A stretch of 64,000 bases of DNA from NCBI GenBank assembly GCA_964589975.1, contig CAZPVH010000001.1, forward strand, positions 100,853 through 164,852. The letters are read 5' to 3'. The notes beneath the pieces are model-generated. The model made no database searches. It was not told the DNA's origin and saw only the letters and a list, made by a program, of their open reading frames with translations. Below, one piece after another: positions 759 through 54,599 of this stretch; the stretch's first letter is position 1, and each line of letters opens with the position of its first letter. The translations under genes and the position numbers were made by a program. Source of the stretch: an uncultured Candidatus Saccharibacteria bacterium. GTDB taxonomy: Bacteria > Patescibacteriota > Minisyncoccia > Phycocordibacterales > CSBR16-119.

Positions 759-1754
759 ATGAAATTATCTGACAGAAGAATTATTGGCGGAGCTATCGCG
801 TTTCTATTTGTCGTCTCGATTGTGCAATCAGGAGCAATTTTGAGGATGTTCGGTGCTGCGAATGGAGGAGATTTGTCGGCAGGGGTGCTTAATATCTCAC
901 CTTTAGGCGGACGTCCTCCAGTAAGTGCCACATATACGCCGGAAGATAATGATGCAGGTGCGAATGGCATTACTTTTACCTCGCGGCAGATCGTGCGCAT
1001 CAGAGCATGCGCAGCTGGCGGCGGAGGTGGAGGCGGAGGTCGCGGCTATGAGTCTGGATCCAATATCGGCAATGGAGGAGCTGGCGGTGGCGGAGGTGGG
1101 CGTGGACAATGTGCCGATCAAGCATTCAAGATGAGACCGGGTGACACGCTCCGGTGGAACATCGGTGTAGGAGGAAATGGTGGTCAGCGCGGAGAACTCT
1201 ACGAACTCATCACGAATGGCAATATCTATCCGCAGATCAGTGCGTCCGCAACGGCTGGAGGCAATGGCGGATGGACGTATGTGAGCATCAATGGCGTTGA
1301 CGTTATACAAGTAGCCGGCGGCCTGGGTGGCCAGCCTGGGGCCAATGCCTACACGACAGGCGCGGCTGGCGGTCTGGGCGGGTCCGTGACATCGGCTGAC
1401 GCTGATTGGCATGCCGGTGAGAATGGCCATATTTCGACAGAGTTGCCCTTGTTTTCATGTGAATATGCAAAAAATAATTTGGCTGGTTACGGTGGCGCGG
1501 GTGGACACGGTGAACCAGAATACCAACCAGGTGAGAGCGGGAATGGAGGAGTGGGTGGCCATTGCTACAAGACCAATACTTATGGATACAACACTGCTTT
1601 TGGCGGCGACGGGATGGCTGCGACGCTTGGAAATGGCGGCGGTGGCGGCGGAGGTGGACTCGGTGTTTGGATGGGCGGAGAGGATGAAATCATCCAATAC
1701 GGCGGCTCTGGTGGAAGGGGAGGTGACGGTTATATAACTGTGAGCGTCGAATAA
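759..1754 (+). CDS. Glycine-rich domain protein with N-terminal membrane anchor (paralog 1 of 3)
   Basis: N-terminal hydrophobic segment IIGGAIAFLFVVSIV. Core motif RIRACAAGGGGGGGG...GGAGGGGGG.G.C....GDTLRW.IG.GG.GG...GGWTYVSINGVDV...GG.GGQ.G, and it ends in GG.GG.GGDGYITVSV. Architecture matches 1874..2839 and 2904..3887. Confidence 0.7.
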   Translation: MKLSDRRIIGGAIAFLFVVSIVQSGAILRMFGAANGGDLSAGVLNISPLGGRPPVSATYTPEDNDAGANGITFTSRQIVRIRACAAGGGGGGGGRGYESGSNIGNGGAGGGGGGRGQCADQAFKMRPGDTLRWNIGVGGNGGQRGELYELITNGNIYPQISASATAGGNGGWTYVSINGVDVIQVAGGLGGQPGANAYTTGAAGGLGGSVTSADADWHAGENGHISTELPLFSCEYAKNNLAGYGGAGGHGEPEYQPGESGNGGVGGHCYKTNTYGYNTAFGGDGMAATLGNGGGGGGGGLGVWMGGEDEIIQYGGSGGRGGDGYITVSVE

Positions 1755-1873
1755 GAAAAATGAAATACTTAATCCATACACTTCTTGCATGTAGTGGGGA
1801 GGAAAGTGATAATCAACAGAAATTTACTTTATTTATGGGTGGAAGAATTAAATTGGGTTAAAATGAGTTTAAT

Positions 1874-2839
1874 ATGAAAAAACTAAATGAAAAAAAGCTT
1901 CTCGTCGGGGCAGTTGCTTTTGTTGCTGTGCTTGGATTTATAAATGTCGTGGCAGTGTTCGCGACAAGAGACGGCATGCTGGCTCAGGTATTCAAGTTCG
2001 GCAACGTTATGACGGTTGATTCTCAGACAGCAACGTACGGTCCTGCGCAAAACGCTTTGGGACAAAACGGTATTTACTTTGATCGAGATAGAAAAGTTTC
2101 TGTTGTTGCGTGTGCGGCCGGCGGCGGCGGAGGCGGCGGTGATCATGGGTATGAAACTGGCAGTGATGATGGCGCCGGTGGCGCTGGCGGCGGCGGAGGC
2201 GGAAAAGGAATGTGCGCGTCGCGAACGCTGAAATTGCGCGCAGGCGACACCCTAAGATGGCTTGTTGGCTCGGGGGGTATGGGCGGTATCAGGGGACGCA
2301 TGATAGAAGTAATGGAGTTCGGTCCGCCGGCAGATCAACATCAGATTGCAACGAATGGAGCTCCGGGCGGCTGGACGTATGTCAGCATAAACGGTATTGA
2401 CGTAATGCAGCTTCAGGGAGGAAATGGCGGCCAGGCTGGCACGCATGCAAGCGATGTATATCTTCCCGGTTGGGGCGGGGCCGGGGGTTCATTGGATACG
2501 GTTCTTCAGCAGGCATGGGGCCACAGAGGTGAAAATGGCCAGAACAATGATCAGCAGTCAAACGGTATGGGCAGCGGAGGCTACGGCGGCAATGGCGAAG
2601 GCCAGAATGGACTCCTTACGAATAGGGGCAGCGGAGGATCATCGTGGACCTGGGGATCAAACCCTCATGGAACTACCGGCGGCAATGGCGTTACTGCCTC
2701 TGGCGGCGGAGGCGGCGGAGGCGGTGCGGGGCAATGGGAGGACTATGATTCCAACGGCGACAATTTTATAAATACATTCAGGAATTGGGGCGGCTACGGC
2801 GGTATCGGCGGAGACGGTTTTGTGACTATCACTTGGTGA
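1874..2839 (+). CDS. Glycine-rich domain protein with N-terminal membrane anchor (paralog 2 of 3)
   Basis: MKKLNEKK + TM segment + RDGMLAQVF. Same ACAAGGGGGGG / GDTLRW / GGWTYVSINGIDV / WGHRGENGQN motifs, and it ends in GGDGFVTITW. Confidence 0.7.
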   Translation: MKKLNEKKLLVGAVAFVAVLGFINVVAVFATRDGMLAQVFKFGNVMTVDSQTATYGPAQNALGQNGIYFDRDRKVSVVACAAGGGGGGGDHGYETGSDDGAGGAGGGGGGKGMCASRTLKLRAGDTLRWLVGSGGMGGIRGRMIEVMEFGPPADQHQIATNGAPGGWTYVSINGIDVMQLQGGNGGQAGTHASDVYLPGWGGAGGSLDTVLQQAWGHRGENGQNNDQQSNGMGSGGYGGNGEGQNGLLTNRGSGGSSWTWGSNPHGTTGGNGVTASGGGGGGGGAGQWEDYDSNGDNFINTFRNWGGYGGIGGDGFVTITW

Positions 2840-2903
2840 GTTTTCCATATTGCTCACGTTATTAATTAAAAAGAATTAATCGGGAACATTAAATTATATC
2901 AAC

Positions 2904-3887
2904 ATGAAAAAACTCAATAAAAAAACTCTCAAGAAGACGGTTATAGCTTTTGCTGCTGTTGTTGGGGTAGTAACTGTATTTGGAACAGTCATTTCGAGGG
3001 ATGGAATGCTGGCCCAAGTCTTTACTTCACAAACATTTCAATCGGATTTGACTTTGCAGATATCGGGCGGGGTTGAAACAAATAGCACAGGCCAAAAAGG
3101 CATAACGCTAAATAGTCAGAGGTTTGTGAGAATTATCGCTTGTTCAGCTGCTGGTGGCGGGGGCGGGGGTGATCGAGGACTTGAAGATGGGTCGAATTGG
3201 GGCTCTGGCGGCGGAGGCGGCGGAGGCGGCGGTAAAGGCAATTGTCGAACAAGAGATATGAAAGTAAGATCCGGAGATGTGCTCCGCTGGTCTGTTGGTA
3301 TGGGCGGCGCTGGTGGCACATATGGAGAGTTGAATCATTTGTTCAATCCTGATGCTCCTGGCGGTGATTACGGTATCGATTTCCCGGAAATTGATACACA
3401 TGCTACGAATGGATCCAGTGGAGGTCCAACGACAGTTGCGATCAACGGTCAGACAGTTCTATCGGTAGAAGGTGGTCATGGTGGTCAGGCGGGCACGAGC
3501 GCAAGCGGAACGTTTTCTCCTGGTTGGGGCGGTGCCGGCGGATCCCTCGATACATCTTTTCAGCAAGCATGGGGGCATAGAGGGGAAAATGGTCAGAATA
3601 CAGACGCACAGACAAATCATATGGGCAGCGGAGGCTATGGCGGAAATGGCGAAGGTCCAAATGGAATTTTGAATAACCGTGGCTACGGAGGGTCTTCATG
3701 GGGACCCGATCCATTCGGTGGCCCTGGTCTGGCCGGGGGTACCATGTCTGGCGGAGGCGGTGGCGGAGGAGGCGCTGGCAGGTGGTATGATCATCAATGG
3801 CAGACGCAGTACGAAGATACAGCGATACAGAATCGCGGCGGAATGGGCGGACCCGGTGGAAACGGTTTTATTCAGATCTATTGGTAG
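2904..3887 (+). CDS. Glycine-rich domain protein with N-terminal membrane anchor (paralog 3 of 3)
   Basis: MKKLNKK + TM segment + RDGMLAQVF. Motifs IIACSAAGGGGGG, GDVLRW, PGWGGAGGSLDT.FQQAWGHRGENGQN. The C-terminus GGNGFIQIYW is colinear with paralog 2. Confidence 0.7.
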   Translation: MKKLNKKTLKKTVIAFAAVVGVVTVFGTVISRDGMLAQVFTSQTFQSDLTLQISGGVETNSTGQKGITLNSQRFVRIIACSAAGGGGGGDRGLEDGSNWGSGGGGGGGGGKGNCRTRDMKVRSGDVLRWSVGMGGAGGTYGELNHLFNPDAPGGDYGIDFPEIDTHATNGSSGGPTTVAINGQTVLSVEGGHGGQAGTSASGTFSPGWGGAGGSLDTSFQQAWGHRGENGQNTDAQTNHMGSGGYGGNGEGPNGILNNRGYGGSSWGPDPFGGPGLAGGTMSGGGGGGGGAGRWYDHQWQTQYEDTAIQNRGGMGGPGGNGFIQIYW

Positions 3888-4007
3888 TACTCGTGTTGCA
3901 ATATTGGCTTTAAGCAATATAATATCAATATTGGAAAGGTTCCGATTTTTCGGAGTCGGAATTAGTCTAGTGCGGCTAATTTCAGATTATAAGAATTATC
4001 TATTTGC

Positions 4008-9616: not shown

Positions 9617-12600
9617 ATGAAGAAGCTTTTTTCGCTTGTTCTGCTTTTTGCCTTAACGTTTTCTCCATTTACCAATCCTGTTTTTGCGGCCCCCGGCGTT
9701 CCAGAAATACTTAGCCATCAGGGACGACTTCTTGATTCCTCGGGGAATTTACTGGGCGGATCTAGTGGAACAAATTATTGCTTTAGATTCTCTTTTTACG
9801 ACGATGCAACTGTGGGTGGCGGCGATGTGAAGTTGTGGCCATTAGGTACGCCGTCAACTATGACTGCAAGTGTTGTTTCAGGGGTATTTAATGTCGGAAT
9901 CGGCGATACTGGCGCTGGCGGGGACGTGCTTGATTTTGATTTTAATTCGACGGATACTGTTTATTTAAACACCGAGGTTGCAGCGCAGATTAGCGGATCA
10001 TGCTCGGGTGTTACTTTTGAGAATCTTTCTCCTCGTCAGAGAATAAATTCTTCGGGTTTTGCCATCAACGCTTCAACCGTAGGCGGCTTTACGGCTTCTC
10101 AGTCGGCCGATGGCAATGACGTTGTGGCCCTCACTTCAGATGATCTCATTTTGGGTGGAACAAATCCTGATTTTGGTGCAACGGGAACAAACACTTTGAC
10201 TCTCCAGGGCAATGGCGCGACAGGTAATATAAATTTCTTTTCCGCATCAAATTCGCTTTCTTCGGGGGGAAACCTTGATGTGGCAGGAACCCTTCAATCC
10301 GGATCGTCAAATGTCTCACTGACGCTTGCGACAGGCTTCGTCGATGCGGACGCGCTCACACTTACCGGTGCAGCCGATGGCGGAACCGGAACCTCTTCCG
10401 GTTCGGGACTTATAGCTCGAAATGACGGCATAGGACTTCTTCAGGGCTGCAGCGACGGGCAGATTCTTAAGTGGATTGAAGCTACTGATACGTGGGATTG
10501 CGCTGCGGATAATAGTGGTGGCGGACTCACAGATTCGGATTATGGAGACATTGTCGTTTCTGGTGGAGGCGGCGTTTGGACTATCGATAACGGCGTCGTA
10601 ACCTCGGCTAAAATTGCAGACAATACTATCGCTAACGCCGACCTTGCCGCAGGAACATTCTCTAGTATCACTGGCACTGGCGCTCTCGGAGCTGGCTCCA
10701 TTACATCAGGATTTGGCGCTATTGATGTGGGAGCAGACAACATTACTACAACAGGTATAGTTTCAACTGATACGCTGACGCTTACTAACACCGGCACGTT
10801 GAATGGGCTTGATGTGATTGATGCTGCGTCGGAATCTACGATCGAAGGTGCCATCGATACACTAGCCAACCTTACGAGTATCCAAGGAAATTCTTTCACG
10901 GTTTCTGGTGCCACGACAGTCTCAGGTACCAACACGGGCGACCAGACTTCGGTTACCGGCAACGCAGGCACCGTCACCTTTGCTGATGCCGGCGGTGACA
11001 CAACAACATTCGTTGCTCTTGGAACTTCCGCCACAGGATCGCTTGCGCCAGCAACCGATGCAGGACTTACTTACAATGCCACCACAAACGCTCTTACAGC
11101 AACAACCTTCGTCGGAGGTCTTACTGGTAACGTAACTGGTAATGCCGATACGGCGACAGCACTCGCAGCCAATCCATCTGATTGCGGAGCAAATGCTTTT
11201 GCCACAACTATCGCTGCAAACGGAAATCTGACCTGCGCAAGTATCACCGATGCGGATGTGCCGAATGATATAACGATCGATTTGGCTGCGCTCGCCTCGA
11301 CCGTGACCGTTGTTGACTCAACAGACGCTACCTCTTTCATTGGCATCTACGATTCAGCGACTGGATCATTGGCGCCAAAAACTGACGGAGCTCTAACTTA
11401 TAATGCTTCGACGGGAGTACTTTCGGCAACGACTTTTGTTGGCGCGCTTACCGGAGCTGCCACAGATCTAAATTGTACGGACTGCATTGGTCCTACAGAA
11501 ATAACAGATCTTACTCTTGGAACCGATACGGCAGGAAACTATGTCGCAACCGTAACAGGCGGAGCCGGCCTCACGGGATCTGGCGCTGCCGAAGGTTCAA
11601 CCCCGACACTAGCAGTTGTCTCCGGTAACGGAGGTATTATCGCTAACGCTGACGACATCACGCTTACCGTTGCGCCGTCAGCGAATGCATTATCTTCTAC
11701 GACTTCAACAGGATCCGGTCTTGAGATTCTTTCGACCGGCATCGCGCTTCTACAAGGCTGCAGTGATGGAAATATTCTCAAGTGGGTAGAAGCGACCGAC
11801 ACATGGGACTGTTCAGTCGATAATGCCGGTGGAGGATTGTCAGATGCTGATTATGGCGATATTACGGTATCCTCATCGGGTTCAGTTTGGACTATCGATA
11901 ACGGCGTCGTAACCTCGGCTAAAATTGCAGACAATACTATCGCTAACGCCGACCTTGCCGCAGGAACATTCTCTAGTATCACTGGCACTGGCGCTCTCGG
12001 AGCTGGCTCCATTACATCAGGATTTGGCGCTATTGATGTGGGAGCAGACAACATTACTACAACAGGTATAGTTTCAACTGATACGCTGACGCTTACTAAC
12101 ACCGGCACGTTGAATGGGCTTGATGTGATTGATGCGACCGGCGAAGCAACTCTCGAGGGCGCGCTCGATATTGCTGGAGATATTGACGGGACTGGTCTTA
12201 CGGCGGTGGACCTCGATGAAGCTGCCGTAGAGGCCGAACTCGAAGCAGTGCTTGATCTTGCTGATATGCAGGGCGCGGTCACAGATGCTCAGGTTCCTGA
12301 CAATATAACGGTTGACTCTGCTACCACAGCGGGAACAGTTACTTTTGCAGACGCCGGCGGAGATACAACGACATTCGTCGCACTCGGAACCTCTGCAACG
12401 GGTTCACTTGCGCCTGCAACTGATGCAGGTCTTACATATAACGCGACGACGAATGCGCTTACGGCAACAACATTTGTTGGAGGACTTACAGGAAATGTTA
12501 CTGGTAATGCCGATACGGCCACAGCTCTCGCGGCGAACCCAACAGACTGCGGAGCGAATACTTTTGCGACAACTATTGCCGCTAACGGAAATCTTACATG

Positions 12601-15600
12601 TGCCTCGATTTTGGATGCAGATGTACCAAACAACATCACAATAGACCTTGCAACCCTTGCTTCGACCGTAACTGTTGTAGACGGAACAGATTCGACCTCG
12701 TTCGTTGCAATATTTGATTCTGCAACTGGATCACTTGCTGCCAAGACTGATGGCGGTCTTCTTTATGATGCTTCGACAGGCACTTTGACCGCAACAGTTC
12801 TCTCGACAGACACGCTTACGCTCACTGGTACTGGAACAATCAACGGACTTGACGTGATAGACGCGACTTCGGAATCGACAATCGAAGCCGCGCTCGATAC
12901 GCTTTCGAACGTTACGACTGTCGGTACGCTCAACGCAGGCTCGATCACTTCCGGATTCGGTGCGATCGATGTTGGCACTGACAGTATTACCACCACTGGA
13001 ACTATCGGTTCAACCGGTAGTGCAAAGTTTACCGGAGACACGGCTACTCTATCGGGAGCAATTGCTGCAAATGGTGGAATCACTTTCGATAACTCTACAG
13101 ATACTTTGGGTGCTTTCACGGCGGGTGGAACTATCGATATGAATACTCAAATTCTCGCCGGTAGCACAGGTAGAATCGATTACACAAATTTTGATGTTGG
13201 CGCCACAGGAAATACGGATATCGGCGGGACAATTACAGCTGGTTCAGGAAATGAGGCTATTACTTTGTCTACGGGTAAAATAGATGCTGACGCAATAAGT
13301 CTCGTAACTGCAACAGATGGCCTTACTGGAACATCTTCAGCTTCGGGGCTTGCCACGTATTCTGACACATTGTCGCTTCTCCAAGGGTGCAGCGACGGCC
13401 AGGTTTTAGCTTGGGTGGAGTCGACTGATACGTGGGACTGTACGACAGTTAGCGCCGGTTCTGGAGACATAACTTCCGTTGGTGATGTTGCTTCGGGGGC
13501 CGCGTTTGACGGTACACAAGGCACAACGCTTACGTTTAATGACACCGATGGAGACAAGACGTTTAAATATGATACGACAAACAATTGGTTCGAGCTCAAT
13601 GATAATATCGCCATAGGCTCTGCTGGTGTTCTTATGACAGATGACGGTGACGGTGCGCTAACGCTTCTTGGTATGGGAGATGGTTCTGACGAAGATTTGA
13701 CGATAAATCTTGACGACACCTCGAATACGGTAGTGGTCTCTTCTTCAACAGGTGTCACTAATATGACATTTACATCGATCGGTGCGACGTTTGGAAGTGA
13801 CGTTACTTTAAATACTCAAAGCGACTTACGTTTGGCCGATTCAGACAGCTCGAATTGGGTGGCATTCCAGGCGCCGGCAACCGTTGGATCAAACATTACT
13901 TGGACACTTCCATCTGCTGACGCAGAAGGTTGTTTTAAATCAAATGGCTCCGGAACAGTTTCAATAGGATCTTGTGGAGATACTAAAATACAGACATATA
14001 CCGCTGATGATACGTGGACTAAACCGTCTGACGCTCTTTTGGTTATTGTCCAAGGGTGGGGCGGAGGCGGAGGCGGAGGCGGAGGAACCGGCGGCTCAAC
14101 TGCTGCTACTCGTTCTGGCGGAGGCGGAGGTGGAGGCGGCGCATATAATCAAAAAATAATTTCAGCTAGTGATCTTGCTAGTAGTGTGAGCGTTGAAGTG
14201 GGTGACGGTGGAACAGCTGGTACAGCAGGATCTAGTGGCGTCGGTGGTGTGGGAGGTTCGGGCGGAAGTACTTGTTTTAGCTCATCAGCAGCATGTGGTG
14301 GAACTAATTACTTCATTACTCGTGCTGGCGGAGGAGGTTCTGGATCTGGTACGGCAGGAAACGGCGGAGGCGGAGGCGGAGGCCTCGGTTCTGCCGGTGC
14401 TGTCGGTTCGGGCGCTACGGGAGGCTCTGGCGGTACACCAGCCGGCGCCTCAGATGCTTCTACGGATGGATTTGCGGGAGGCGGAGGAGGAAACTCAGGT
14501 ACTTCTGCTGGAGCGTCTGCCGGTAATTTGGCTGCTTGGGGCGGAGGTGGCGGGGGTGCTTCTACCACAGCGGGAGGCGCGGTTTCTGGTGAAGGAGGAA
14601 GTGCAATTCGCGGTGCCGGAGCCGGCGGCGGAGGTGGAAGTAATCCATCTGGCTGTGCTTCTTTCCGGGGAGGAGGAGACGGAGGAGCTAGCTCTTCCGG
14701 AGCATTGGGTGGCGGTGGAACAGGAGCGCTTGCGCAAGGAATAAATGGTGGTGCTGGAGCTGATAGCACTATATCGAGCCAAAATGGCGGTTCCGGCGGC
14801 GGCGGTGCGGCAAGTCATTGTTCGGGTACCGGGGGAACAGGGGGTGCTGGAGGTATTCCGGGTGGCGGAGGTGGCGGAGGCGGCGCTGGTGCGACCACAA
14901 CAGGTGGTGCCGGAGGAGTTGGTGCTCGCGGTGAATTGCAAGTCTGGACACTTCGGGGGGCGGGTGCCGACCTTGCTGAAATATATGCTACAAACGAGAT
15001 AGATATTGGTCCTGGCGATCTTGTTTCTATTGATCCAGAAATGAATGCCGGAGTCAAAAAGACTAACAAAAAATATGATCACATGGCGATTGGAGTAGTT
15101 TCAACAGAGCCGGGACTAACGATCGGTAATATGGATGAGGATCCGAATGCGTTCCAGCCAGTGCTTATTGCGCTTGCTGGGCGCGTGCCAATGAAGGTTA
15201 ATCTTGAGAATGGCCCGATTGTAAAAGGAGATCTTCTTACCCCGTCATCTGTTCCGGGTGTTGCCATGAAGGCGACAAAGGCGGGTATCGTCGTGGGTCA
15301 ATCAATGACTGACTACAACGGCGATATGCCAACGCAGATTGAATTGGGCTACGGCTATGTTGTTGCCTTTATTAAGAATGCATACAGTAATGGTTCAAAG
15401 CTTGCTGATATCTTGCCTGGACTTACGACCGCCGAAGAAGATGATATTCCGGAAGGAGATATATCTCAAACTTATCCAATAAATAGACAAGCGCTCGAGT
15501 ATTTCTTGGCTCACCGCGCGGAGCTTGGTCCGGAAACAGAACTTTCTGAAATCTATACAGATCGCCTAAGCGCCGGTCTTGAAGTCATCACTCCGACCTT

Positions 15601-17356: not shown

Positions 17357-18661
17357 ATGTATAAGAGTTTTTCCTCTGCTCTCAAAATTGGCATTTTATT
17401 TTCTATTTTCGCGATTTCTTTTGGAATTGCTTTGGCGGCAGATTTTACAAGTTCGAGCTTTATTGTGCGCGATCCGGTTATTTTGTCTGGCTCGGGTTAT
17501 TCTTCAAGCGCAAGTTTTCAATATTTCGGAAGCCTCGGTCAGACTGCGATCGGCGCTTCGGCAAGTGGCGGTTTTATTGAGCGTTCAGGATTCTTGTATT
17601 TCTCGGTGGTGACTAGTCCAGTTCTTTCGGGTACGGCTGGAAATGCGTCGGTGTCCCTTTCTTGGACCGCTTCTAATGCTAGCCTCGGTCACACTGTTAC
17701 ATCGTATGAGGTTGGCGTTTCTAGCACGTCTGGCTCGGGGTACTCGTATACAAATGTTGGGAATACGCTGTCTTCTAGCCAGACCGGTCTTTCAAACGGG
17801 ACTACATATTATTTCATTGTGAGAACTCTCGACTCGTTAGGAGATGTGATAGCCACATCAAATGAGGTATTTGCTACGCCGACTGCTACTGGTGGCGGAG
17901 GTGGCGGAGGAAGTGGCGGTTCGTCAACTGGAGTCACTTTCTCAGGGTATGCGTTTCCACTTAGCGAAGTTACGATATTGAAAGACGGAGTAGTATCGCT
18001 TAAAACCATTGCTGGCGGTGATGCTAGGTTCTCAGTTCGACTTTCTCGCCTCGATTCCGGATCGTACAATTTTGCTGTTTATGGCACAGACAAAGATGGT
18101 CTGAAATCAACTTCGTTCAGTTTTCCAATAACTATCAATGAGGGCGATTCGGCGACCGTCTCTGGAATATTCCTAACACCGACTATAGAAGTTGATCTGG
18201 CTCAGGTTCGCAAAGGAGACGATATTGTCATATTCGGACAAACAACGCCAGAATCTGAGGTTACTATTGAGGTTAATTCCGAAACGCCGCATTTTGCTGA
18301 AACAGAGTCAAATGACGATGGGGTGTATCTTTATAATTTCAACACCGCACCGCTCGAGATGGGAAATCATAATACTAAGTCAAAATCGCTGCTCGATAAT
18401 GGTCAATCTTCCGGATACGGCAGACAGGTGGCGTTCGTCGTTGGAACAGAAAACATTCCGAAGGAGATTGACACAGGGTCATGCAATGCGGATTTGAACT
18501 CCGATGCAAAAATTAACCTAGTCGATTTCTCAATTGCCGCTTTTTGGTACACGAAAACACTTACCGGAGATATTGTTTCAAAAGAAGCTGACTGTTTGAA
18601 TGGTGATGGCGTCATCAATCTGGTCGATTTCTCGATAATTGCTTATTACTGGACAGGATAG
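17357..18661 (+). CDS. Secreted protein with fibronectin-III-like domain and a C-terminal type-I dockerin module
   Basis: Signal peptide (ILFSIFAISFGIALA). VSLSWTAS...YEV...TYYFIVRT is FN3-like. The C-terminus has two canonical dockerin Ca-binding segments: DLNSDAKINLVDFSIAAFWY and CLNGDGVINLVDFSIIAYYW (D/N at 1,3,5,9,12 plus a hydrophobic helix). Confidence 0.75.
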   Translation: MYKSFSSALKIGILFSIFAISFGIALAADFTSSSFIVRDPVILSGSGYSSSASFQYFGSLGQTAIGASASGGFIERSGFLYFSVVTSPVLSGTAGNASVSLSWTASNASLGHTVTSYEVGVSSTSGSGYSYTNVGNTLSSSQTGLSNGTTYYFIVRTLDSLGDVIATSNEVFATPTATGGGGGGGSGGSSTGVTFSGYAFPLSEVTILKDGVVSLKTIAGGDARFSVRLSRLDSGSYNFAVYGTDKDGLKSTSFSFPITINEGDSATVSGIFLTPTIEVDLAQVRKGDDIVIFGQTTPESEVTIEVNSETPHFAETESNDDGVYLYNFNTAPLEMGNHNTKSKSLLDNGQSSGYGRQVAFVVGTENIPKEIDTGSCNADLNSDAKINLVDFSIAAFWYTKTLTGDIVSKEADCLNGDGVINLVDFSIIAYYWTG

Positions 18662-30121: not shown

Positions 30122-31153
30122 ATGTCAGAGATTGCTTTGTATAGAAAATACCGGCCAGAGGCCTGGAAGGAGGTTCTGGGTCAGGAACATATTGTAAAAG
30201 TTTTGCAGGGTGCGCTCGCGCTTGGCAATGTTGCGCATGCGTACCTCTTTTTCGGTTCTCGTGGAACAGGCAAGACCACTGTGGCCAGGATTGTCGCGCG
30301 CGAGCTTGGAGTTTCCGAAAATGATACTTTCGAAATAGATGCCGCATCGAATGGTGGTATCGATGAGATTCGCGCGCTTCAGGAAAATATTGCGACACTT
30401 CCTTTTGACTCCAAATACAAAGTTTATATTTTCGATGAAGTTCACATGTTGTCGAAAGCTGCTTGGAACGCGATGCTAAAAACGCTCGAGGAACCGCCAG
30501 CCCATGTCGTGTTTATTTTAGCTACCACCGAAATAGAAAAAGTCCCTGAAACAATCATATCTCGCTGCCAAGTCTTTACTTTTAAAAAGCCAAACACCAA
30601 AATCTTGAAACAGATGGTTGAGGGCGTGGCCAAGAGCGAAGGCTGGAAAATCGATGCCGCCGGCGCCGAGCTCATATCGATTCTCGGAGACGGATCTTTC
30701 CGCGACACGCATGGTATTCTGCAGAAAGTGATGTCGTTCTCAAAAGACAAGAAGATTAGTTCACAGGAAATTGAAGCAGTTACAAACGCGCCTTCGGGTA
30801 TGCTGGCAGTCAGTCTCTTGAAAAGCATCGCTGAAAAAGATCTAGCGGGTGGACTTGAACTTATTTCAAAGGCGGCTGAACAAAATATCGATATGGCTTT
30901 ATTTTTGAAACTTTCCGTCATGAGGCTGCGCACGGCGCTTCTTTTACGCTACGCTCCTGAGATGAAAAATGAGCTTTTCGAATCCATGACCGACGGCGAG
31001 CGAGACGCCATAACTCTGGTTTTAAAAACAAAAGGATCCAATCTGTCTTCGAAGACTTTAGAAATTCTCTTGGAAACGGGGGAGAAAATAAAATACGCCA
31101 GTGTTTCGACATTGCCTCTGGAACTCGCGCTCATAAAAATAATCGAGGAATAA
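30122..31153 (+). CDS. dnaX: DNA polymerase III subunit gamma/tau, short form (343 aa)
   Basis: YRKYRPEAWKEVLGQEHIVKVL...FFGSRGTGKTT Walker A. IYIFDEVHML. DnaX-type AAA+ clamp-loader core without a tau extension. Confidence 0.8.
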   Translation: MSEIALYRKYRPEAWKEVLGQEHIVKVLQGALALGNVAHAYLFFGSRGTGKTTVARIVARELGVSENDTFEIDAASNGGIDEIRALQENIATLPFDSKYKVYIFDEVHMLSKAAWNAMLKTLEEPPAHVVFILATTEIEKVPETIISRCQVFTFKKPNTKILKQMVEGVAKSEGWKIDAAGAELISILGDGSFRDTHGILQKVMSFSKDKKISSQEIEAVTNAPSGMLAVSLLKSIAEKDLAGGLELISKAAEQNIDMALFLKLSVMRLRTALLLRYAPEMKNELFESMTDGERDAITLVLKTKGSNLSSKTLEILLETGEKIKYASVSTLPLELALIKIIEE

Positions 31154-31154
31154 G

Positions 31155-31190
31155 AAAGCCCCGCGTCATGCGCGGGGCTTTTCCTTTTGT
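31155..31190. terminator. Bidirectional terminator between dnaX and rpoD
   Basis: aaagccccgcg-tcat-gcgcggggcttttcctttt. Confidence 0.7.
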
Positions 31191-33331: not shown

Positions 33332-33664
33332 ATGCTGACAGCACTTCTCATTGCGGTCGTGGCCGCAGCGAGCCTTGGTATATTTCTCTACGATCGGCGC
33401 AAGATCAAGAAAAGCGGCGCCGCGAAGTTCGAGAAATATCTGATCGACCAGCTTGAGACCGAACTGATTCCGCATTTTGCTACTCGGGACGAGGCTTTGA
33501 GCTTTGTTGCCAAGTTTCAAGATGCCAAGCAGAAAAACTTTGGACCGGTTCATGTTATTGATCTCCAGGTCCTCTGCGACAATGTCGTCTATAGGATGTG
33601 CAATAAAGGCATGATTCCCGAGCGACACTGGCGGAATTGGCCGGTTTTGGTCGAGATGGCATGA
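33332..33664 (+). CDS. Hypothetical membrane-anchored protein
   Basis: N-terminal TM MLTALLIAVVAAASLGIFL. 110 aa. Terminator follows directly. Confidence 0.4.
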   Translation: MLTALLIAVVAAASLGIFLYDRRKIKKSGAAKFEKYLIDQLETELIPHFATRDEALSFVAKFQDAKQKNFGPVHVIDLQVLCDNVVYRMCNKGMIPERHWRNWPVLVEMA

Positions 33665-33700
33665 AAAAGCCCCCGCGCGATGCGCGGGGGCTTTAGCTTT
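33664..33700. terminator. Bidirectional rho-independent terminator
   Basis: aaaagcccccgcgcg-at-gcgcgggggcttt, a 13-bp GC stem. Confidence 0.7.
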
Positions 33701-36987: not shown

Positions 36988-37020
36988 AAAAGAAAAGCCC
37001 CCGCGATGTGCGAGGGCTTT
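36988..37020 (-). terminator. Rho-independent terminator for the minus-strand gene
   Basis: rc: aaagccctcgcacatcgcgggggcttttctttt. Confidence 0.55.
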
Positions 37021-43774: not shown

Positions 43775-45175
43775 ATGGAAACTATGGCTAAATTTAAAGA
43801 ATATCTAAAGACAAATAAGAAGAAATTGCTTATTGGCGGAGGCGTGCTACTCCTCTTGGTAATTATCGTTGCCGGCGGCGGCAAAGGCGATGAAGGAATT
43901 TCAAGATTCACTGTTGAGCGCGGAGACGTGCTAGACACCTTGATCCTCTCGGGCGAGGCGAAGCCTGTCGAGGGCGCAGAGATGGCTTTCTCCACCTCCG
44001 GCATGGTGGAACAGGTCTTCAAACAAGCGGGCGACAAGGTTTTTGTGGGCGAGAAAATTGTCGAGCTTGATAACGCGTCTCTTCGGGCTGATCTTTCCGA
44101 CGCGGTTGCAAACTTAGAGCTCGCGAAAGCCGAGGCCAAGGTTTCTGACGCCGAGCTTGACCAGGATGTGAAAAACGCTTATGCCAAACTCCTCTCGGAC
44201 GATCTGCAGGCATATTCCCGGGATTCAAGCGTAACGCATGAACCGCCGGTTATTTCCGGAAGCTATCAGGGGATGGAGGAGGGAGAGTATCGCGTGACCA
44301 TTGAGTCTTCGAATGATGCCTCTGGCAAATCATTCCGATATTTCGGCATCGAGAATGGCAAATCTCCAGTAGTCTTCTACAAAGCTATTCCGCTTGGAAC
44401 AAAGGGTCTCTTCATAAAATTCACCGAGGGTCAGACTTCTTCGGGCGACACATGGCGAATTTCCATCCCAAATGTTGAGGGAGATTCTTATATTGAAAAC
44501 TACAATGCTTATCAAAGCGCGCTTGCGAGCCGCGACGCCGCAGAAAAAGACAATGTCTCAAAGCAGATTTCAGACGCCCGCATCAAACAAGCGGCCGCCG
44601 GCGTAGCGCGTATCCAAGCTGAGATAAATGAGCGAACACTCAGAGCGCCATTCTCTGGAGTCGTTTCCAAAGTAGATGTAAAGAAGGGCGAGATTGCCGA
44701 GGCAAACGTCATTGTTACCGGAGTTATCACTGACGGTGCTTATGAGGTTGTTGTAGAGGTTCCAGAATCAGATGTTGTCGGCCTTATGCCGGGCATACCG
44801 GCGCCTATTACTCTAGATGCTTACGGTTCGGAAGTGGTTTTCCCAGGAACACTTGTATCAATCGACCCCGCAGAAACTGAAGTCGACGGCGTATCCGTCT
44901 ATCGCGGCAAGGTTTCTTTTGTCGAAGCCGATGAGCGGATTCGCTCAGGCATGACGGCAACGGTCAATATTGCGAAAGCGGAAGCGAAGGATGTGATCCG
45001 TATCCCAGAGCGATACATTGAGCTCGATGACGAAGGAATCTTTGTGAATCTTTTAAAGGATGAAGAAGAAGTTAAAGTAAGCGTTGTTACCGGTCTATAT
45101 GGGAGCGACGGCTATGTTGAGATAAAGGAAGGACTCGCAGAGGGAGACATCATAATTGGGCATTTTGCCGAGTAA
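43775..45175 (+). CDS. HlyD/MacA-type periplasmic adaptor (membrane fusion protein)
   Basis: N-terminal TM, coiled-coil ASLRADLSDAVANLELAKAEAKV, beta-barrel/lipoyl-like segments. Adjacent to an ABC permease and an ATPase. Confidence 0.7.
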   Translation: METMAKFKEYLKTNKKKLLIGGGVLLLLVIIVAGGGKGDEGISRFTVERGDVLDTLILSGEAKPVEGAEMAFSTSGMVEQVFKQAGDKVFVGEKIVELDNASLRADLSDAVANLELAKAEAKVSDAELDQDVKNAYAKLLSDDLQAYSRDSSVTHEPPVISGSYQGMEEGEYRVTIESSNDASGKSFRYFGIENGKSPVVFYKAIPLGTKGLFIKFTEGQTSSGDTWRISIPNVEGDSYIENYNAYQSALASRDAAEKDNVSKQISDARIKQAAAGVARIQAEINERTLRAPFSGVVSKVDVKKGEIAEANVIVTGVITDGAYEVVVEVPESDVVGLMPGIPAPITLDAYGSEVVFPGTLVSIDPAETEVDGVSVYRGKVSFVEADERIRSGMTATVNIAKAEAKDVIRIPERYIELDDEGIFVNLLKDEEEVKVSVVTGLYGSDGYVEIKEGLAEGDIIIGHFAE

Positions 45176-45181
45176 TATGAG

Positions 45182-45296
45182 TCTCGTTAGAAGTCGCGGT
45201 CGCAGATAAAAAATAAAATATGATAATCAAGGAATACAAAATTAAAAGTATAAATCAAGTATGTTGCGGAACGACCGCGACCTACTTCTAACGGGA
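45182..45296. mobile_element. MITE-like intergenic repeat, copy A (115 bp, imperfect ~22-bp terminal inverted repeats, TGAG direct repeats on both flanks)
   Basis: Left arm tctcgttagaagtcgcggtcgc. Right arm gaccgcgacctacttctaacggga, which is the rc of tcccgttagaagtaggtcgcggtc. AT-rich ~68-bp core. TGAG at 45178-45181 and 45297-45300. About 80% identical to copy B. Confidence 0.6.
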
Positions 45297-46543
45297 TGAG
45301 AGCTGCGCTAAGAGTCGGATTCCTGCTGGGGCTCCGGCAGATAAAAAGAGCCAATATTTGGACGACGGCACTTATCATTTTTATTATGATGCTGACCTTC
45401 TTGAACCTGGTCGGAGTCTCCGGTATTTTGGTTGGCCTTATCGAAGGATCGGTCAAGGCTAACCGCGAACAATACAGCGGAAACGTACTTCTCACTACGC
45501 CAAAAGGCGAAAACTATATTGAAGGCAGCAATAGCGTAATTGCGACACTTCATAATATTCCGGAAGTCCAGAACTTCACGGCAAGGTTCCTTGATTCTGC
45601 AACCATTGAGGCGAATTATCGAAACCGCCGCGATCCGAACGCGCTCCGCGACAGCGTTGGCGCGCAAGTGGCCGGAATTGATCCTGTAGCTGAAAATGAG
45701 GTCGCGAGTTTGGCTAAATACGTGGCCGAAGGAGAATATCTGGAGCCGGGAGATGATCAGTATGTTCTGGTCGGAGCTAATATGATCCAGAGGTATATCT
45801 CAGATTTCGGCGAGGGATTCGATACGCTTGATGATATTTTCCCTGGAACAAAAATCCGTCTTACATCGGGAGACAAGACGCGTGAATACATCGTGAAAGG
45901 TATCGTTGATAGCAAAGTTGACCAGACATCTTTCCGAATATTTATGACCGAAGGTGAATTCGTCCGGTTCTTTGACCGAACGAGCGTGAATGTAAACGAG
46001 ATCGCGGTACTGGCGACGCCGGGGGTTTCGGAAGAGCGCCTCAAAGATATTTTCATCAAAAGCGGTTTCGCTGAAACAGCAAAGGTTCAGACTTCGAACG
46101 AGGCTATTCCGCAATTTTTGACTGACATCAAACTTGCTTTCGGGCTTCTTGGAAACATTATCGGTATGATCGGCATCATTGTCGCTTCCATTACAATCTT
46201 CATCATCATTTTCATTAACGCTGTGACGCGGCGTAAATATATCGGCATTTTGAAAGCGATCGGTATCGAGGCGCGCTCGATCAAGTGGGCATATATTATC
46301 CAGTCAATTTTTTACGCTGTCTCCGGCGCCGTCCTCGGACTCATTGTGCTTTACGGCGTGATGGTCCCGGCCTTTAACGCTCATCCGATAGACTTTCCAT
46401 TCTCTGACGGAATCTTGGTCGCGCCAATCGACAGCGTAATGTTCAAGTTTGCCCTGCTTCTAGTTGTGACTCTAATCGCGGGCTACATTCCGGCGTCGAT
46501 GATTATCAGAAAAAATACCCTGGACTCGATCCTTGGACGATAA
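45296..46543 (+). CDS. ABC transporter permease, FtsX/MacB-like
   Basis: N-terminal TM, large periplasmic loop, three C-terminal TM helices (GMIGIIVASITIFIIIFINAVTRRKYIGILKAIG). Confidence 0.75.
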   Translation: MRAALRVGFLLGLRQIKRANIWTTALIIFIMMLTFLNLVGVSGILVGLIEGSVKANREQYSGNVLLTTPKGENYIEGSNSVIATLHNIPEVQNFTARFLDSATIEANYRNRRDPNALRDSVGAQVAGIDPVAENEVASLAKYVAEGEYLEPGDDQYVLVGANMIQRYISDFGEGFDTLDDIFPGTKIRLTSGDKTREYIVKGIVDSKVDQTSFRIFMTEGEFVRFFDRTSVNVNEIAVLATPGVSEERLKDIFIKSGFAETAKVQTSNEAIPQFLTDIKLAFGLLGNIIGMIGIIVASITIFIIIFINAVTRRKYIGILKAIGIEARSIKWAYIIQSIFYAVSGAVLGLIVLYGVMVPAFNAHPIDFPFSDGILVAPIDSVMFKFALLLVVTLIAGYIPASMIIRKNTLDSILGR

Positions 46544-52547: not shown

Positions 52548-53024
52548 TTGGCCACTATGATCGATAAAGAACTGATAACCAAAGAGCGAAAGGCTGAGCT
52601 CGAAGCAGAGCTGAGACGCCTGGAAGGAGAAGAAAGGAGAGAAATAATCGAAAGTCTAGAGTTCGCCAAATCACTTGGCGACCTTTCTGAAAATGCCGAA
52701 TATCACCAAGCTAGAGAGGCTCAGGGTAAGCTTGAAGACCGCGTTAGGGAAATCAAAAGAATTTTGAAAGACGCCGAAGTTGTTTCCGGCAAGAAAAAGG
52801 GCGATACTGCTCAGATTGGTTCTATTGTCACTGTCCAGAAAAAAGGGGACAAGGATAAAAGGAAATTCATTATCGTTGGCGAAGGTGAGGCTGACATGGC
52901 TGCAGGCAAAATCTCTTATCAATCTCCACTTGGTTCGGCTATTTATGGACACAAGAAAGGCGACAAGACCGTATTCGACAGTCCGGCCGGATCGGTTGAA
53001 TATACTATCGTAGACATGGAATAA
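52548..53024 (+). CDS. greA: Transcription elongation factor GreA
   Basis: N-terminal coiled-coil ELITKERKAELEAELRRLEGEERREII...DLSENAEYHQAREAQGKLEDRVREI, plus a C-terminal FKBP-like domain. Confidence 0.85.
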   Translation: MATMIDKELITKERKAELEAELRRLEGEERREIIESLEFAKSLGDLSENAEYHQAREAQGKLEDRVREIKRILKDAEVVSGKKKGDTAQIGSIVTVQKKGDKDKRKFIIVGEGEADMAAGKISYQSPLGSAIYGHKKGDKTVFDSPAGSVEYTIVDME

Positions 53025-53030
53025 ATTGAG

Positions 53031-53142
53031 TCCCGTTATAAGCCGCGGTCGCTATGAAATATAAAATGATAATACTAGAAAGCAAAGTTAAAAATATAAT
53101 ACGAGCAAGTCGCGCCAAGACCGCGACCTGCTTCTAACGGGA
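53031..53142. mobile_element. MITE-like intergenic repeat, copy B (112 bp)
   Basis: tcccgttataagccgcggtcgc ... gaccgcgacctgcttctaacggga, flanked by TGAG (53027-53030 and 53143-53146). The last base of the element is the A of the lysS ATG. The stem carries a compensatory change relative to copy A (T-A becomes C-G). Confidence 0.6.
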
Positions 53143-54599
53143 TGAGCGCCCCAGACTCATTAAAAGAGGTGAGACTTCAAAAACTAGAGCTTCTCAAAAG
53201 CGCTGGCATGGATCCATACCCGGCTCGCGCTGATCGTGATTTCACTTTGGCCGAGGCCAAAGAAAAATTCGAAGATCTTGGCGAGCGAAGTCTATCGCTT
53301 GCGGGGCGCATCATGGCTATCCGCGGACAGGGAGCCATACTTTTTACTGTTCTAAATGATGGAACTGATTCTTTCCAGTCAGTGTTCAAGAAGGACGAGC
53401 TTGATGAAAATTTATTCAATCTTTTTGTCGACGCTGTTGACGTCGGGGATTTCATTTCCGTAACGGGTACATTTTTCACCACCCAAAAAGGTGAGAAGAG
53501 CCTTTTGGTCAAAGGTTGGAATATTCTTTCAAAGTCGCTTCTTCCTATGCCGGAGAAATGGGCGGGTATTCAGGACGAAGAGCTCCGACTCAGGAAGAGA
53601 TACCTTGATCTCCTTATGGACAAGGAAGCTCGCGATCTCTTTTACAAGAAATCAAAATTCTGGGAAGCGACAAGAAACTTTTTGAAGAAAGAAGGATTTC
53701 TGGAAGTCGAAACTCCGACGCTTGAAATCACAACCGGCGGCGCCGAGGCCAGACCATTTAAAACACATCACAATGACTATGATTTGGATGTATACCTCAG
53801 AATTTCTGTCGGCGAGCTCTGGCAAAAGCGTCTCATGGCCGCGGGGTTCCCGAAAACTTTTGAAATCGGCCGAGTTTACAGAAACGAAGGATCCAGTCCG
53901 GAACATCTTCAGGAATTTACGAACATGGAATTCTACTGGTCATTCGCCGACTATAACGACGGCATGAGACTTGTCGAGAATTTGTATAAACATGTAGCGA
54001 TGGAGGTTTTTGGCACCACTATTTTTACTACTCGCGGCCACACATTCGATCTCGGACACGAATGGGGCAAGGTTGATTATGTATCGCACGTGGAAGAACA
54101 TACGGGAATCAATGTCCTCACTGCGACGGAAAAGGAAATGGAGGCAAAGCTTCGCGAGCTTGGCGTTGAATACACTGGAAATAATCGTGAAAGGCTTATG
54201 GATACGCTTTGGAAATATTGCAGGAAAAAGATTGGCGGTCCGGCATTCCTCATAAATCATCCAAAACTCGTTTCGCCGCTCGCTAAGTCATTGCCGGATG
54301 ATCCGGAGCGCACAGAGCGTTTCCAGGTGCTTCTGGCCGGTTCAGAAGTAGGGAACGGCTTCTCTGAGCTGAACGATCCTATTGATCAGAGGGCGCGCTT
54401 TGAGCTTCAGGAAAAGCTTATAGAGCGCGGGGATGATGAGGCCATGATGCCGGAATGGGAATTTGTTGAGATGCTTGAACACGGCATGCCGCCAACCTGC
54501 GGATTTGGCTTCGGTGAGCGCCTATTTGCCTTTTTGGCAGATAAACCGATCCGCGAAACTCAGCTTTTCCCACTGGTAAAGCCGCGAAAAGACAACTAA
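53142..54599 (+). CDS. lysS: Lysyl-tRNA synthetase, class II
   Basis: N-terminal OB-fold anticodon-binding domain. Motif 2 VYRNEGSSPEHLQEFTNMEFY. Motif 3 region GMPPTCGFGFGERL. Confidence 0.9.
   Translation: MSAPDSLKEVRLQKLELLKSAGMDPYPARADRDFTLAEAKEKFEDLGERSLSLAGRIMAIRGQGAILFTVLNDGTDSFQSVFKKDELDENLFNLFVDAVDVGDFISVTGTFFTTQKGEKSLLVKGWNILSKSLLPMPEKWAGIQDEELRLRKRYLDLLMDKEARDLFYKKSKFWEATRNFLKKEGFLEVETPTLEITTGGAEARPFKTHHNDYDLDVYLRISVGELWQKRLMAAGFPKTFEIGRVYRNEGSSPEHLQEFTNMEFYWSFADYNDGMRLVENLYKHVAMEVFGTTIFTTRGHTFDLGHEWGKVDYVSHVEEHTGINVLTATEKEMEAKLRELGVEYTGNNRERLMDTLWKYCRKKIGGPAFLINHPKLVSPLAKSLPDDPERTERFQVLLAGSEVGNGFSELNDPIDQRARFELQEKLIERGDDEAMMPEWEFVEMLEHGMPPTCGFGFGERLFAFLADKPIRETQLFPLVKPRKDN

Follow-up and report, generated by a model that had tools for sequence, protein, structure and literature searches.

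Two copies of a short palindromic element, called copy A and copy B here, are located on the forward strand of a 64-kb stretch of contig CAZPVH010000001.1 from an uncultured Candidatus Saccharibacteria bacterium; the whole of this stretch is termed the window. Copy A (115 nt, 45182..45296) lies between the gene of an HlyD-family membrane-fusion protein (43775..45175) and that of an FtsX-like ABC permease (45296..46543), for which full-length homologues of 415 aa were found. Copy B (112 nt, 53031..53142) lies between greA (52548..53024) and lysS, which encodes class II lysine-tRNA ligase (53142..54599). All four genes and both elements are read on the plus strand, and the stop codon of the upstream gene stands 6 nt before the element in both cases. 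A preliminary description of this DNA had reported two elements of about 80% identity at these positions, each placed between a stop codon and the next ATG. Alignment of the two copies over 162 columns gave a mean column identity of 83%, and the Pfam assignments (HlyD-like and FtsX for the first junction, GreA and class II LysRS for the second) confirmed the placement.

The left arm of copy A, TCTCGTTAGAAGTCGCGGTCGC (45182..45203), pairs with its right arm, GACCGCGACCTACTTCTAACGGGA (45273..45296), which holds an ACCT bulge and a TAA stop codon at 45289-45291. The corresponding arms of copy B are TCCCGTTATAAGCCGCGGTCGC (53031..53052) and GACCGCGACCTGCTTCTAACGGGA (53119..53142), the latter with the TAA stop codon at 53135-53137. 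In both copies the last base of the element is the A of the downstream ATG (45296 and 53142, respectively), and both host genes begin at this rebuilt start codon. The element is flanked by the direct repeat TGAG on both sides, as had been described. Upstream of copy A the bases ATGAG (45177..45181) comprise the target-site duplication TGAG (45178-45181) and a relic of the original start codon, while the downstream TGAG (45297..45300) forms bases 2-5 of the permease gene. Upstream of copy B the sequence is TTGAG (53026..53030), with the duplication at 53027-53030, and the downstream TGAG (53143..53146) forms bases 2-5 of lysS. At the orthologous filled site of a relative (L239, see below) the upstream duplicate of copy B is still ATGAG.

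The window contains the 24-nt right arm, GACCGCGACCT[A/G]CTTCTAACGGGA, in exactly two places, and the arm was absent from 100 shuffles even with three mismatches allowed. Similarly, a covariance model built from 104 members of the family detected only copy A (91.7 bits, E 1e-22) and copy B (89.0 bits) in the window. The NCBI protein for the lysS of the window (P0001, 463 aa) is 22 residues shorter at the N-terminus and covers 95% of the 485-aa open reading frame (ORF), the difference corresponding to 53142-53207. Since homologues cover the whole N-terminus of the 485-aa protein, the ATG at the border of the element is the real start, and we suspect that the gene caller was misled by the element.

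Family members and their target site

The preliminary description had proposed a search of related genomes for more copies. When 20 defined bases of the right arm were used to scan species-representative genomes, at least 117 loci were obtained, from 78 assemblies and with up to 4 loci per assembly among the matches listed. The fetched loci are numbered L001-L117 for these right-arm matches, L119-L238 for a sister family, L239-L243 for relatives of the lysS junction and L244-L248 for relatives of the FtsX junction. Nearly all loci were labelled Patescibacteria, namely Paceibacteria, Nomura-, Kaiser-, Taylor-, Zambryski-, Campbell-, Sung-, Moran- and Buchananbacteria; one short contig with a match belonged to a bin labelled archaeon. 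The matches listed, together with second copies in their flanks, provided 129 oriented elements with a length of mostly 116-122 nt. The host genes are diverse (lysS, ssb-like genes, permeases and many others) and do not form a functional set. Decayed copies and nested copies exist in the family.

The family has the end sequences TCCCGTTAGAAG and CTTCTAACGGGA, and is called T...A after its terminal bases. Further subfamilies, which were found by the model and not by the search pattern, have only the outer TCCCGT...ACGGGA in common with it; their inner stems differ and are internally complementary. All 17 copies of these other T...A subfamilies abut an ATG. Three copies were located at the very start of a locus (L029:1-96, L034:1-96 and L103:1-126), and the repeat may break metagenome assemblies.

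The position at a start codon proved to be the rule rather than a coincidence of two copies. The terminal A together with the flank makes an ATG in 122 of the 129 copies, the orientation to the gene is fixed in the same number, and an ORF of at least 60 aa follows in 117. The 5′ flank usually consists of ATG and one to three further bases, which recur 3′ of the element. If the terminal A is assigned to the element, 72 copies have a 4-nt duplication, 17 have one of 3 nt and 3 one of 5 nt, and in 37 it is absent or decayed (n = 129). The duplicated bases are TGAA (36), TGGA (16), TGAG (12), TGG (9), TGA (7) and TGTA (4), and the base preceding the upstream duplicate is A in 88 of 92 copies. The preliminary description had proposed a transposable element of the miniature inverted-repeat type (MITE) with a TGAG target preference at translation starts. 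Its MITE-like character and its preference for starts were found again in the family, but TGAG is only one of several duplicates. In copies with an exact 4-nt duplication the ATG is followed by AA, GA, AG, TA or GG in 72 of 72 cases, whereas the same classes account for 45% of control genes. Four copies, including copy B, one in L072 and one in L006, have TTG or GTG in the upstream duplicate while the downstream start is ATG. A duplication without ATG is rare in the T...A family (e.g., CAGA/CAGA in L028), and no copy in the family sample was found 1-3 nt upstream of an ATG.

These results show that the element integrates with a short staggered cut and a 4-bp duplication, sometimes of 3 or 5 bp. 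In the start-codon branch the cut falls on the TG of the start codon and the next two, mostly purine, bases, and the element starts with T and ends with A. The target is the start codon plus these two bases, A^TG[A/G/t][A/G], where the caret marks the cut. The terminal A completes the downstream TGNN to ATG again while the upstream copy keeps ATGNN, and the coding sequence therefore remains intact.

A GC-rich variant was encountered in L014 (L014:864-1351, minus strand). It is 74 nt long with CCCCG...CGGGG ends; one copy is inserted in frame in a 366-aa RibD-like ORF, another lies on the stop codon of that ORF and a third is nested inside. One metagenome scan with both ends, CCCCGTTAGAAG...CTTCTAACGGGG, yielded at least 120 loci of this sister family (C...G) in Patescibacteria-type metagenome contigs, with 126 copies of 64-94 nt. 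Among the matches listed, 83 of the 126 copies have a duplication of precisely 4 nt, and the target forms a palindrome, R (84%) ^ T (86%) N N A (88%) ^ Y (80%). The lengths are three-periodic, length plus 4 being a multiple of 3 in 76 of 126. Among 113 copies with evaluable context, 28 are in frame inside an ORF, 22 on or just after a stop codon, 14 at a start (GTG) and 49 elsewhere. The in-frame translations read ..PVRS....SNGV.. or, in the opposite orientation, ..TPLEV....LLTG.., and some copies are nested in one another. In L218 and L220 (e.g., L220:1966-6531) many C...G copies occur within a few kb, each in GGTGAA...TGAA(C/G)CC, with at least three read through in frame; they make up a dense array, possibly inside one large gene.

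The mixed contexts of the sister family indicate that the machinery in common is not start-specific in itself and that intergenic insertions can survive. Moreover, A^TG[A/G]A falls within the R^TNNA^Y consensus, so the start-codon branch could use the same enzyme. The copies at start codons might then belong to an ordinary MITE that cuts at any R^TNNA^Y, with the start pattern arising wholly from purifying selection in compact genomes. The rare T...A copies away from ATG, such as that of L028, fit this explanation, as does the AT-rich loop, which is rich in stop codons and could not survive inside an ORF. Nevertheless, selection of this kind would spare genes equally well with an insertion 1-3 nt before the ATG, where not a single copy was seen, and 122 of 129 copies have TG as the first bases of the right flank. 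Furthermore, 43% of the sister copies are intergenic while the T...A branch is nearly absent from such positions, and the subfamilies found independently of the pattern abut ATG without exception. The absence of copies just before the ATG and the near-absence from intergenic DNA are not explained by a pure survival filter. We also infer, as a rough estimate, that R^TNNA^Y sites in intergenic DNA are several times as numerous as start codons that match, and we favour a real preference for, or an advantage at, start codons. We therefore regard selection acting on an indiscriminate MITE as a rather unlikely account of the pattern. The orientation, fixed in nearly all copies, further implies that a strand-specific factor matters, either at the integration step or in the RNA.

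Empty sites and mobility

The preliminary description had also proposed a search for junctions without the element, and element-free alleles were found for both window junctions in close relatives. In the closest FtsX relative fetched (L248, FtsX 90% identical) the site of copy A is empty; the junction reads ...GAATAACATGAGAGCTGCA... with a single ATGAGAGCT. The sequence TAACATGAGAGCTGCA of this relative matches exactly what the TGAG duplication of copy A predicts for an empty site. The site is also empty in L244, L245 and L247, and is filled in L246. At the site of copy B, L239 (LysS 91% identical) is filled, and L240-L243 (LysS 85-80%) are empty with a greA-lysS gap of 3-9 nt. Another pair of filled and empty alleles was obtained for loci with 86% protein identity, L099 with AAAAATATGG, element and ATGGCATTAAA and L056 with AAAAATAT directly followed by ATGGCATTAAA.

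Copies at different genes of one genome have a loop identity of 0.87-0.99 (L052/L116, L037/L113 and L084/L091). The duplicated bases differ between such near-identical copies, which means that they are a true target duplication and not a part of the element. Tandem copies with one TGAA in common between them were observed in L055, L076 and L010. Evidently, the empty alleles and the near-identical copies at different genes characterize a mobile, MITE-like element, which has been gained and lost between close relatives with almost always the same orientation to the gene. In the case of copy B, the loop has decayed to background in comparison with the L239 orthologue (61%) while the arms are kept.

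Taken together, these results make it very probable that copies A and B represent a non-autonomous palindromic MITE-like mobile element, usually of about 118 bp, which is abundant in Patescibacteria (Paceibacteria/Parcubacteria) and whose landing on start codons would be tolerated through a hand-over of ribosomes.

Hairpin, mini-ORF and translation of the host genes

An outer helix of 13 bp and a further 7-9 bp, separated by a 4-nt ACCU bulge on the 3′ side, make up the stem of copies A and B; the outer helix has one G-U pair in copy A and one mismatch in copy B. The fold energies are −34.3 and −30.4 kcal/mol with z values of −3.0 and −2.0 for copies A and B, respectively, and the loop is AT-rich and about 65 nt long. 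Thus, the stem of 10 bp, 4-nt bulge and 7 bp given in the preliminary description was right in its bulge and too short in its outer helix. The compensatory change reported there, T-A in copy A and C-G in copy B, is real, and the pair is CG in 97, UA in 3 and UG in 4 of 104 members. Covariation over aligned copies, which had been proposed for study at the same time, was assessed on these 104 copies. The 20 stem pairs have 98% of their cells paired, 8 of the 20 are changed on both sides, and none of 500 shuffles reached any of five stem measures, paired cells and two-sided changes included.

Across the family, positions 1-17 of the left arm show a conservation of at least 90%, to which the search pattern does not contribute. 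The loop has 75% A+T, with more A (44%) than T (32%) on the strand of the gene, and is otherwise poorly conserved. A loop motif that recurs in the family, AAG[C/T]AGG(T), is complementary to ACCTGCTT of the right arm, the bulge included. A pairing score of at least 7 was obtained in 25% of the elements and in 6% of shuffles, a four-fold difference, and the variable position of the motif pairs as C:G in 29, T:G in 10, T:A in 2 and otherwise in 3 cases. Another local hairpin, CGCGR..YCGCG near the right end, has at least four of five pairs in 24% of the elements versus 5% of shuffles and is confined to one subfamily. In copy B (53104-53132) the loop sequence AGCAAGTCGCG pairs with CGCGACCTGCT of the right arm at 10 of 11 positions, and this local hairpin, which was flagged on the minus strand by the terminator scan, rivals the long stem. 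In two loci (L004:1270-1408 and L020:7003-7144) the left arm is split by a GC-rich palindrome of about 20 nt (e.g., GAAGCCCCGCCTATCGGCAGGCAGGCGCGGTC), which may be a second, even smaller inserted element.

The surroundings of the start codons were compared in L001-L117 and the window. Shine-Dalgarno-like motifs precede 7% of the element-bearing starts, 11% of ordinary starts and 12% of random ATGs. Of the element-bearing genes, 38% have a −10 box (TAnnnT) at a distance of 4-10 nt upstream of the first ATG, compared with 21% of other predicted starts. On this evidence, Shine-Dalgarno signals appear to be missing from these genomes, and leaderless mRNAs to be in frequent use. As there is no enrichment of such signals, a hairpin before the AUG would not part the AUG from a ribosome-binding site. 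The suggestion that the element donates a promoter was not borne out, since no match to the sigma-70 −35/−10 consensus was found inside copy A or copy B. The sequence TGCTTCTAA of the right arm was considered as an extended −10; the resemblance is weak and the candidate was dropped because the key A at position 2 is missing. No terminator was found on the sense strand of the element.

The right arm reads ...ACC GCG ACC TGC TTC TAA CGGG ATG. One frame stops at the TAA 4 nt before the AUG, a second has a TGA overlapping the AUG if the fourth base of the gene is A, and the third runs in the reading frame of the gene. In 58% of the elements the TAA frame stays open over 20 codons or more, compared with 18% and 11% for the other frames, and an ORF of at least 15 codons beginning with ATG was found in the TAA frame in 51% of 122 elements compared with 2-4% in the other two. 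The mini-ORF of copy A (45220..45291, plus strand) has 23 codons, MIIKEYKIKSINQVCCGTTATYF, with the start in the loop and the TAA 4 nt before the ATG of the permease gene; it is intact in the orthologous element of L246. That of copy B (53054..53137, plus strand) has 27 codons (23 when read from the second ATG, at 53066) and ends with ..TATCF and a TAA 4 nt before the ATG of lysS. Mini-ORFs in the family have 27 codons or fewer, and up to 40 in a few members. A conserved leader peptide, MNPVRSRG, was ruled out because the reading frame shifts with the length of the duplication.

The following scheme is proposed for the tolerance of the element. It would be transcribed within the mRNA of the host gene and form a stable hairpin, the 3′ foot of which would touch the real AUG. 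Such a hairpin could be tolerated because Shine-Dalgarno motifs are not enriched and promoters are often placed as for leaderless mRNAs. The end of the element would hand ribosomes on to the gene by means of the right-arm stops at the AUG. In about half of the copies, a mini-ORF of 21-24 codons would start in the unstructured A-rich loop and end at the TAA, leading to termination and reinitiation. With a ribosome on the left arm, the local hairpin of the loop motif could set the AUG and the final 9 nt free. An effect of the hairpin at the RNA level is likely. Start codons would thus be a safe landing site for the T...A branch, either by recognition through the enzyme or by selection. A further step is to assume an element lineage specialised in start codons, through an integrase that would recognise A^TGRR in one orientation or through a self-contained module for translational hand-over. 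This module would comprise the terminal A that rebuilds the ATG, the stops at the start, the mini-ORF of the loop and the alternative local hairpin, and with it the start codon would become the only site at which the element could persist. We hold such a specialisation to be nearly as probable as its opposite and keep it as a tentative proposal.

The position of the element also allows the idea that it behaves like an intron at the 5′ end of the message. The hairpin and one repeat would be removed, or RNase III or another nuclease would cut at the foot, and the mRNA would restart near the AUG. RNase III is known for a length requirement on its substrates, and the stem of at least 20 bp is long enough for it. 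The enzyme was reported to be retained in Patescibacteria (PMC12641178). The leaderless spacing of the −10 box in about 38% of element-bearing genes and the fact that 122 of 129 copies end precisely with the A of the AUG would also suit this idea. Nevertheless, the loop is variable without a ribozyme-like conserved core, there is no Rfam match, and flanks that are direct repeats cannot make a bulge-helix-bulge splice motif. Any such cleavage is thus putative, and we consider removal or cleavage of the hairpin quite improbable.

Several observations weigh against the proposal of a mobile element tolerated by ribosome hand-over. The exact right-arm search pattern means that the conservation of the right arm is partly built in and that old, decayed copies are under-sampled. 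G-U and A-C cells in the stem are about equal in number (41 versus 30, and 38 versus 42 non-standard cells in a second count), so that selection on an RNA stem is not distinguishable from inverted repeats in DNA. The mini-ORF is missing from half of the copies, and its pairwise differences of 0.58, 0.58 and 0.64 at codon positions 1, 2 and 3 lend weak support to coding constraint. Co-transcription, formation of the hairpin in vivo and reinitiation are steps that we infer from the sequence. In about 1.9 Mb of fetched loci no pair of arms enclosing a transposase-sized ORF was found as an autonomous partner. Solo arms and arm pairs 300-6000 bp apart with matching duplications were also sought, and all such pairs proved to be several small elements with a common TGAA. 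As no transposase was found in these loci, the transposition mechanism is assumed from the duplication alone. Finally, L246 has at the same site (upstream of 601) an element 92% identical to copy A, with 90% in the loop, while the adjoining FtsX genes are 73.7% identical and the third codon positions 46%, i.e., the synonymous sites are saturated. The site is empty in L248, L244 and L245, all of which are closer to the window than L246. Such conservation is not expected of an element that is purely selfish and decays neutrally; either the element was selected at this site and several precise losses occurred, or the same lineage hit one start codon twice.

The last observation is one reason for considering that the element is mainly a functional cis-acting RNA leader, recognised by a factor and controlling the translation of many genes, with mobility being secondary or ancient. 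The conserved hairpin would then possibly act as a structural switch combined with a leader peptide. The arms are nearly invariant across many orders of Patescibacteria while the loops diverge, and the fixed orientation, the alternative hairpin of the loop motif and the enrichment of the mini-ORF in one frame can be read in the same way. Nevertheless, the same starts are free of the element in the closest relatives and the host genes have no function in common. Near-identical copies occur at different genes, in tandem and nested, their duplications depend on the target, and decayed copies exist. Moreover, the loop of copy B is at background compared with L239, G-U pairs are not in excess over A-C in the stem, and no Rfam family was matched. 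The preliminary description had offered the alternative that two unrelated genes are regulated by a structured leader common to both. With diverse hosts, variable presence and a mostly unconserved loop, this identity is not supported for the element, and we judge a primary regulatory role of the wider kind improbable.

Implications and relation to known systems

If the mobile element is indeed tolerated in the proposed way, by landing on start codons and re-creating them, it would represent a strategy of persistence for mobile DNA in very small genomes, where genes must not be broken, of which we found no description. If the specialised lineage exists as well, the genomes of Patescibacteria, with the in-frame sister family, would be permeated by palindromic elements fitted to gene boundaries. 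In the annotation of genes the elements may mislead start calls, as is suspected for lysS. To our knowledge, little is known about translation initiation in Patescibacteria, and the pairs of filled and empty alleles are a natural experiment on the use of an AUG directly behind a 20-bp hairpin without Shine-Dalgarno signals. Insertions of the in-frame sister family lengthen proteins by 22-32 residues, and protein novelty could originate in this way, as has been proposed for palindromic inserts in Rickettsia. The enzyme that makes the 4-bp R^TNNA^Y cut could belong to a new transposase lineage.

Other repeats were also noted in the window. Long runs of GGCGGAGG-type repeats, in families of up to 23 copies, are present at 1000-3900, 14050-14900 and 17885-17930 and would encode glycine-rich stretches in tandem paralogous ORFs. 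Large direct repeats with a period of 1311 bp at 10436-13440 (286 nt with 95% and 300 nt with 78% identity) suggest repeated domains or duplicated genes. Three similar GC-rich hairpins followed by a T run (AAAGCCCCGCG..CGCGGGGCTTT) at 31152-31182, 33664-33694 and 36990-37020 look like intrinsic terminators with a common sequence.

The preliminary description had recognised no known repeat family in the two copies, and the searches led to the same result. No Rfam family matched at the gathering score in the whole window, and nothing relevant appeared at E values up to 10 around copy A (45100-45400). A known structured RNA family was ruled out on this ground and because the loop is not conserved. 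A tRNA-like minihelix for RNase P or RNase Z was likewise rejected, as the cuts predicted from the sequence would not free the AUG. The right-arm pattern is absent from IMG/VR, blastn against GenBank phages gave no match, and no publication on the element or its arm sequences was found among open-access papers.

By its structure the element is a bacterial MITE in everything except a known autonomous partner. It is small and has no transposase gene (112-115 nt in the window, with a family mode of 116-122 nt), it has terminal inverted repeats (20 paired positions, with the outer TCCCGT..ACGGGA in all subfamilies) and a short duplication that varies with the target (4 nt in 72 of 129). Its copies are dispersed, with filled and empty alleles in relatives at both window sites and at others. 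In its logic it is closest to the hairpin MITEs Correia and ERIC, to Rickettsia palindromic elements (RPE) by way of its sister family, and to mycobacterial interspersed repetitive units (MIRU), whose small ORF bridges the ends of genes. The Correia elements of Neisseria and the ERIC/IRU sequences of enterobacteria are about 100-150 bp long with long terminal inverted repeats, a short duplication and many copies. They are also adjacent to genes, become part of the mRNA as a long hairpin, and vary in presence between relatives. Correia elements have a TA duplication and features of promoters and IHF sites, and ERIC sequences have no defined relation to start codons. Unlike the element described here, neither is known to be tied to a start codon, to rebuild an ATG or to have a fixed orientation to the gene, and no sequence similarity is known.

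RPE resemble the element in being small, palindromic and selfish, in their occurrence in a reduced genome, in the absence of a known transposase and in leaving genes unbroken. Insertion in frame and without stops inside genes, which characterizes RPE, is not seen for the window copies, which occupy gaps between stop and start and have stops in the loop. Only the sister C...G family behaves in this manner (28 of 113 inside ORFs), and it is the behaviour in which the two are alike. The host phylum and the sequence are different.

MIRU are short intergenic repeats in operons, oriented with the genes, and contain small ORFs that overlap the stop and start codons of their neighbours, which suggests translational coupling. 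The mini-ORF of the element, ending 4 nt before the ATG of the host gene, is similar in this respect. MIRU are direct tandem repeats of 46-100 bp without a hairpin and without duplication of a start codon, and rebuilding of an ATG is not known for them.

REP/REPIN sequences (RAYT) and derivatives of IS200/IS605 are like the element in having a hairpin with conserved arms and a variable spacer, and in being non-autonomous without an internal transposase. They insert without duplication beside a fixed tetra- or pentanucleotide, whereas the flanking repeat of the element varies with the target; the REP tags GTAG and CGTC are not present in the element. Such an origin, with an HUH (Y1) enzyme and no duplication, was ruled out since the flanks vary with the target in the family (TGAA, TGGA, TGAG, TGTA and CAGA), also between near-identical copies. 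The HUH model would place the right-hand ATGNN within the element, and it is rejected because NN differs between near-identical copies. Integron attC sites, which lie between promoterless cassettes, have an R″ box (RYYYAAC) on the 5′ side and an R′ box (GTTRRRY) on the 3′ side, with AAC/GTT at the inner end. The element was ruled out as an attC site, as its 5′ arm contains GTTAGAA and its 3′ arm TTCTAAC, i.e., the reverse geometry, and its neighbours are housekeeping genes in conserved order.

In its logic the element is comparable to systems that target safe havens, such as Tn7 at attTn7, group II introns after terminators and insertion sequences in REP, all of which use a class of harmless sites. 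The likeness is one of logic only; the site class of the element is a start codon that is re-created by its own terminal base, and we know of no described element that uses a start codon in this way. The family is apparently undescribed. It is real, mobile and unusual, with insertion at start codons and regeneration of the ATG strongly supported, and, if our interpretation is correct, it adds a further class of safe site beside those of Tn7 and the group II introns.

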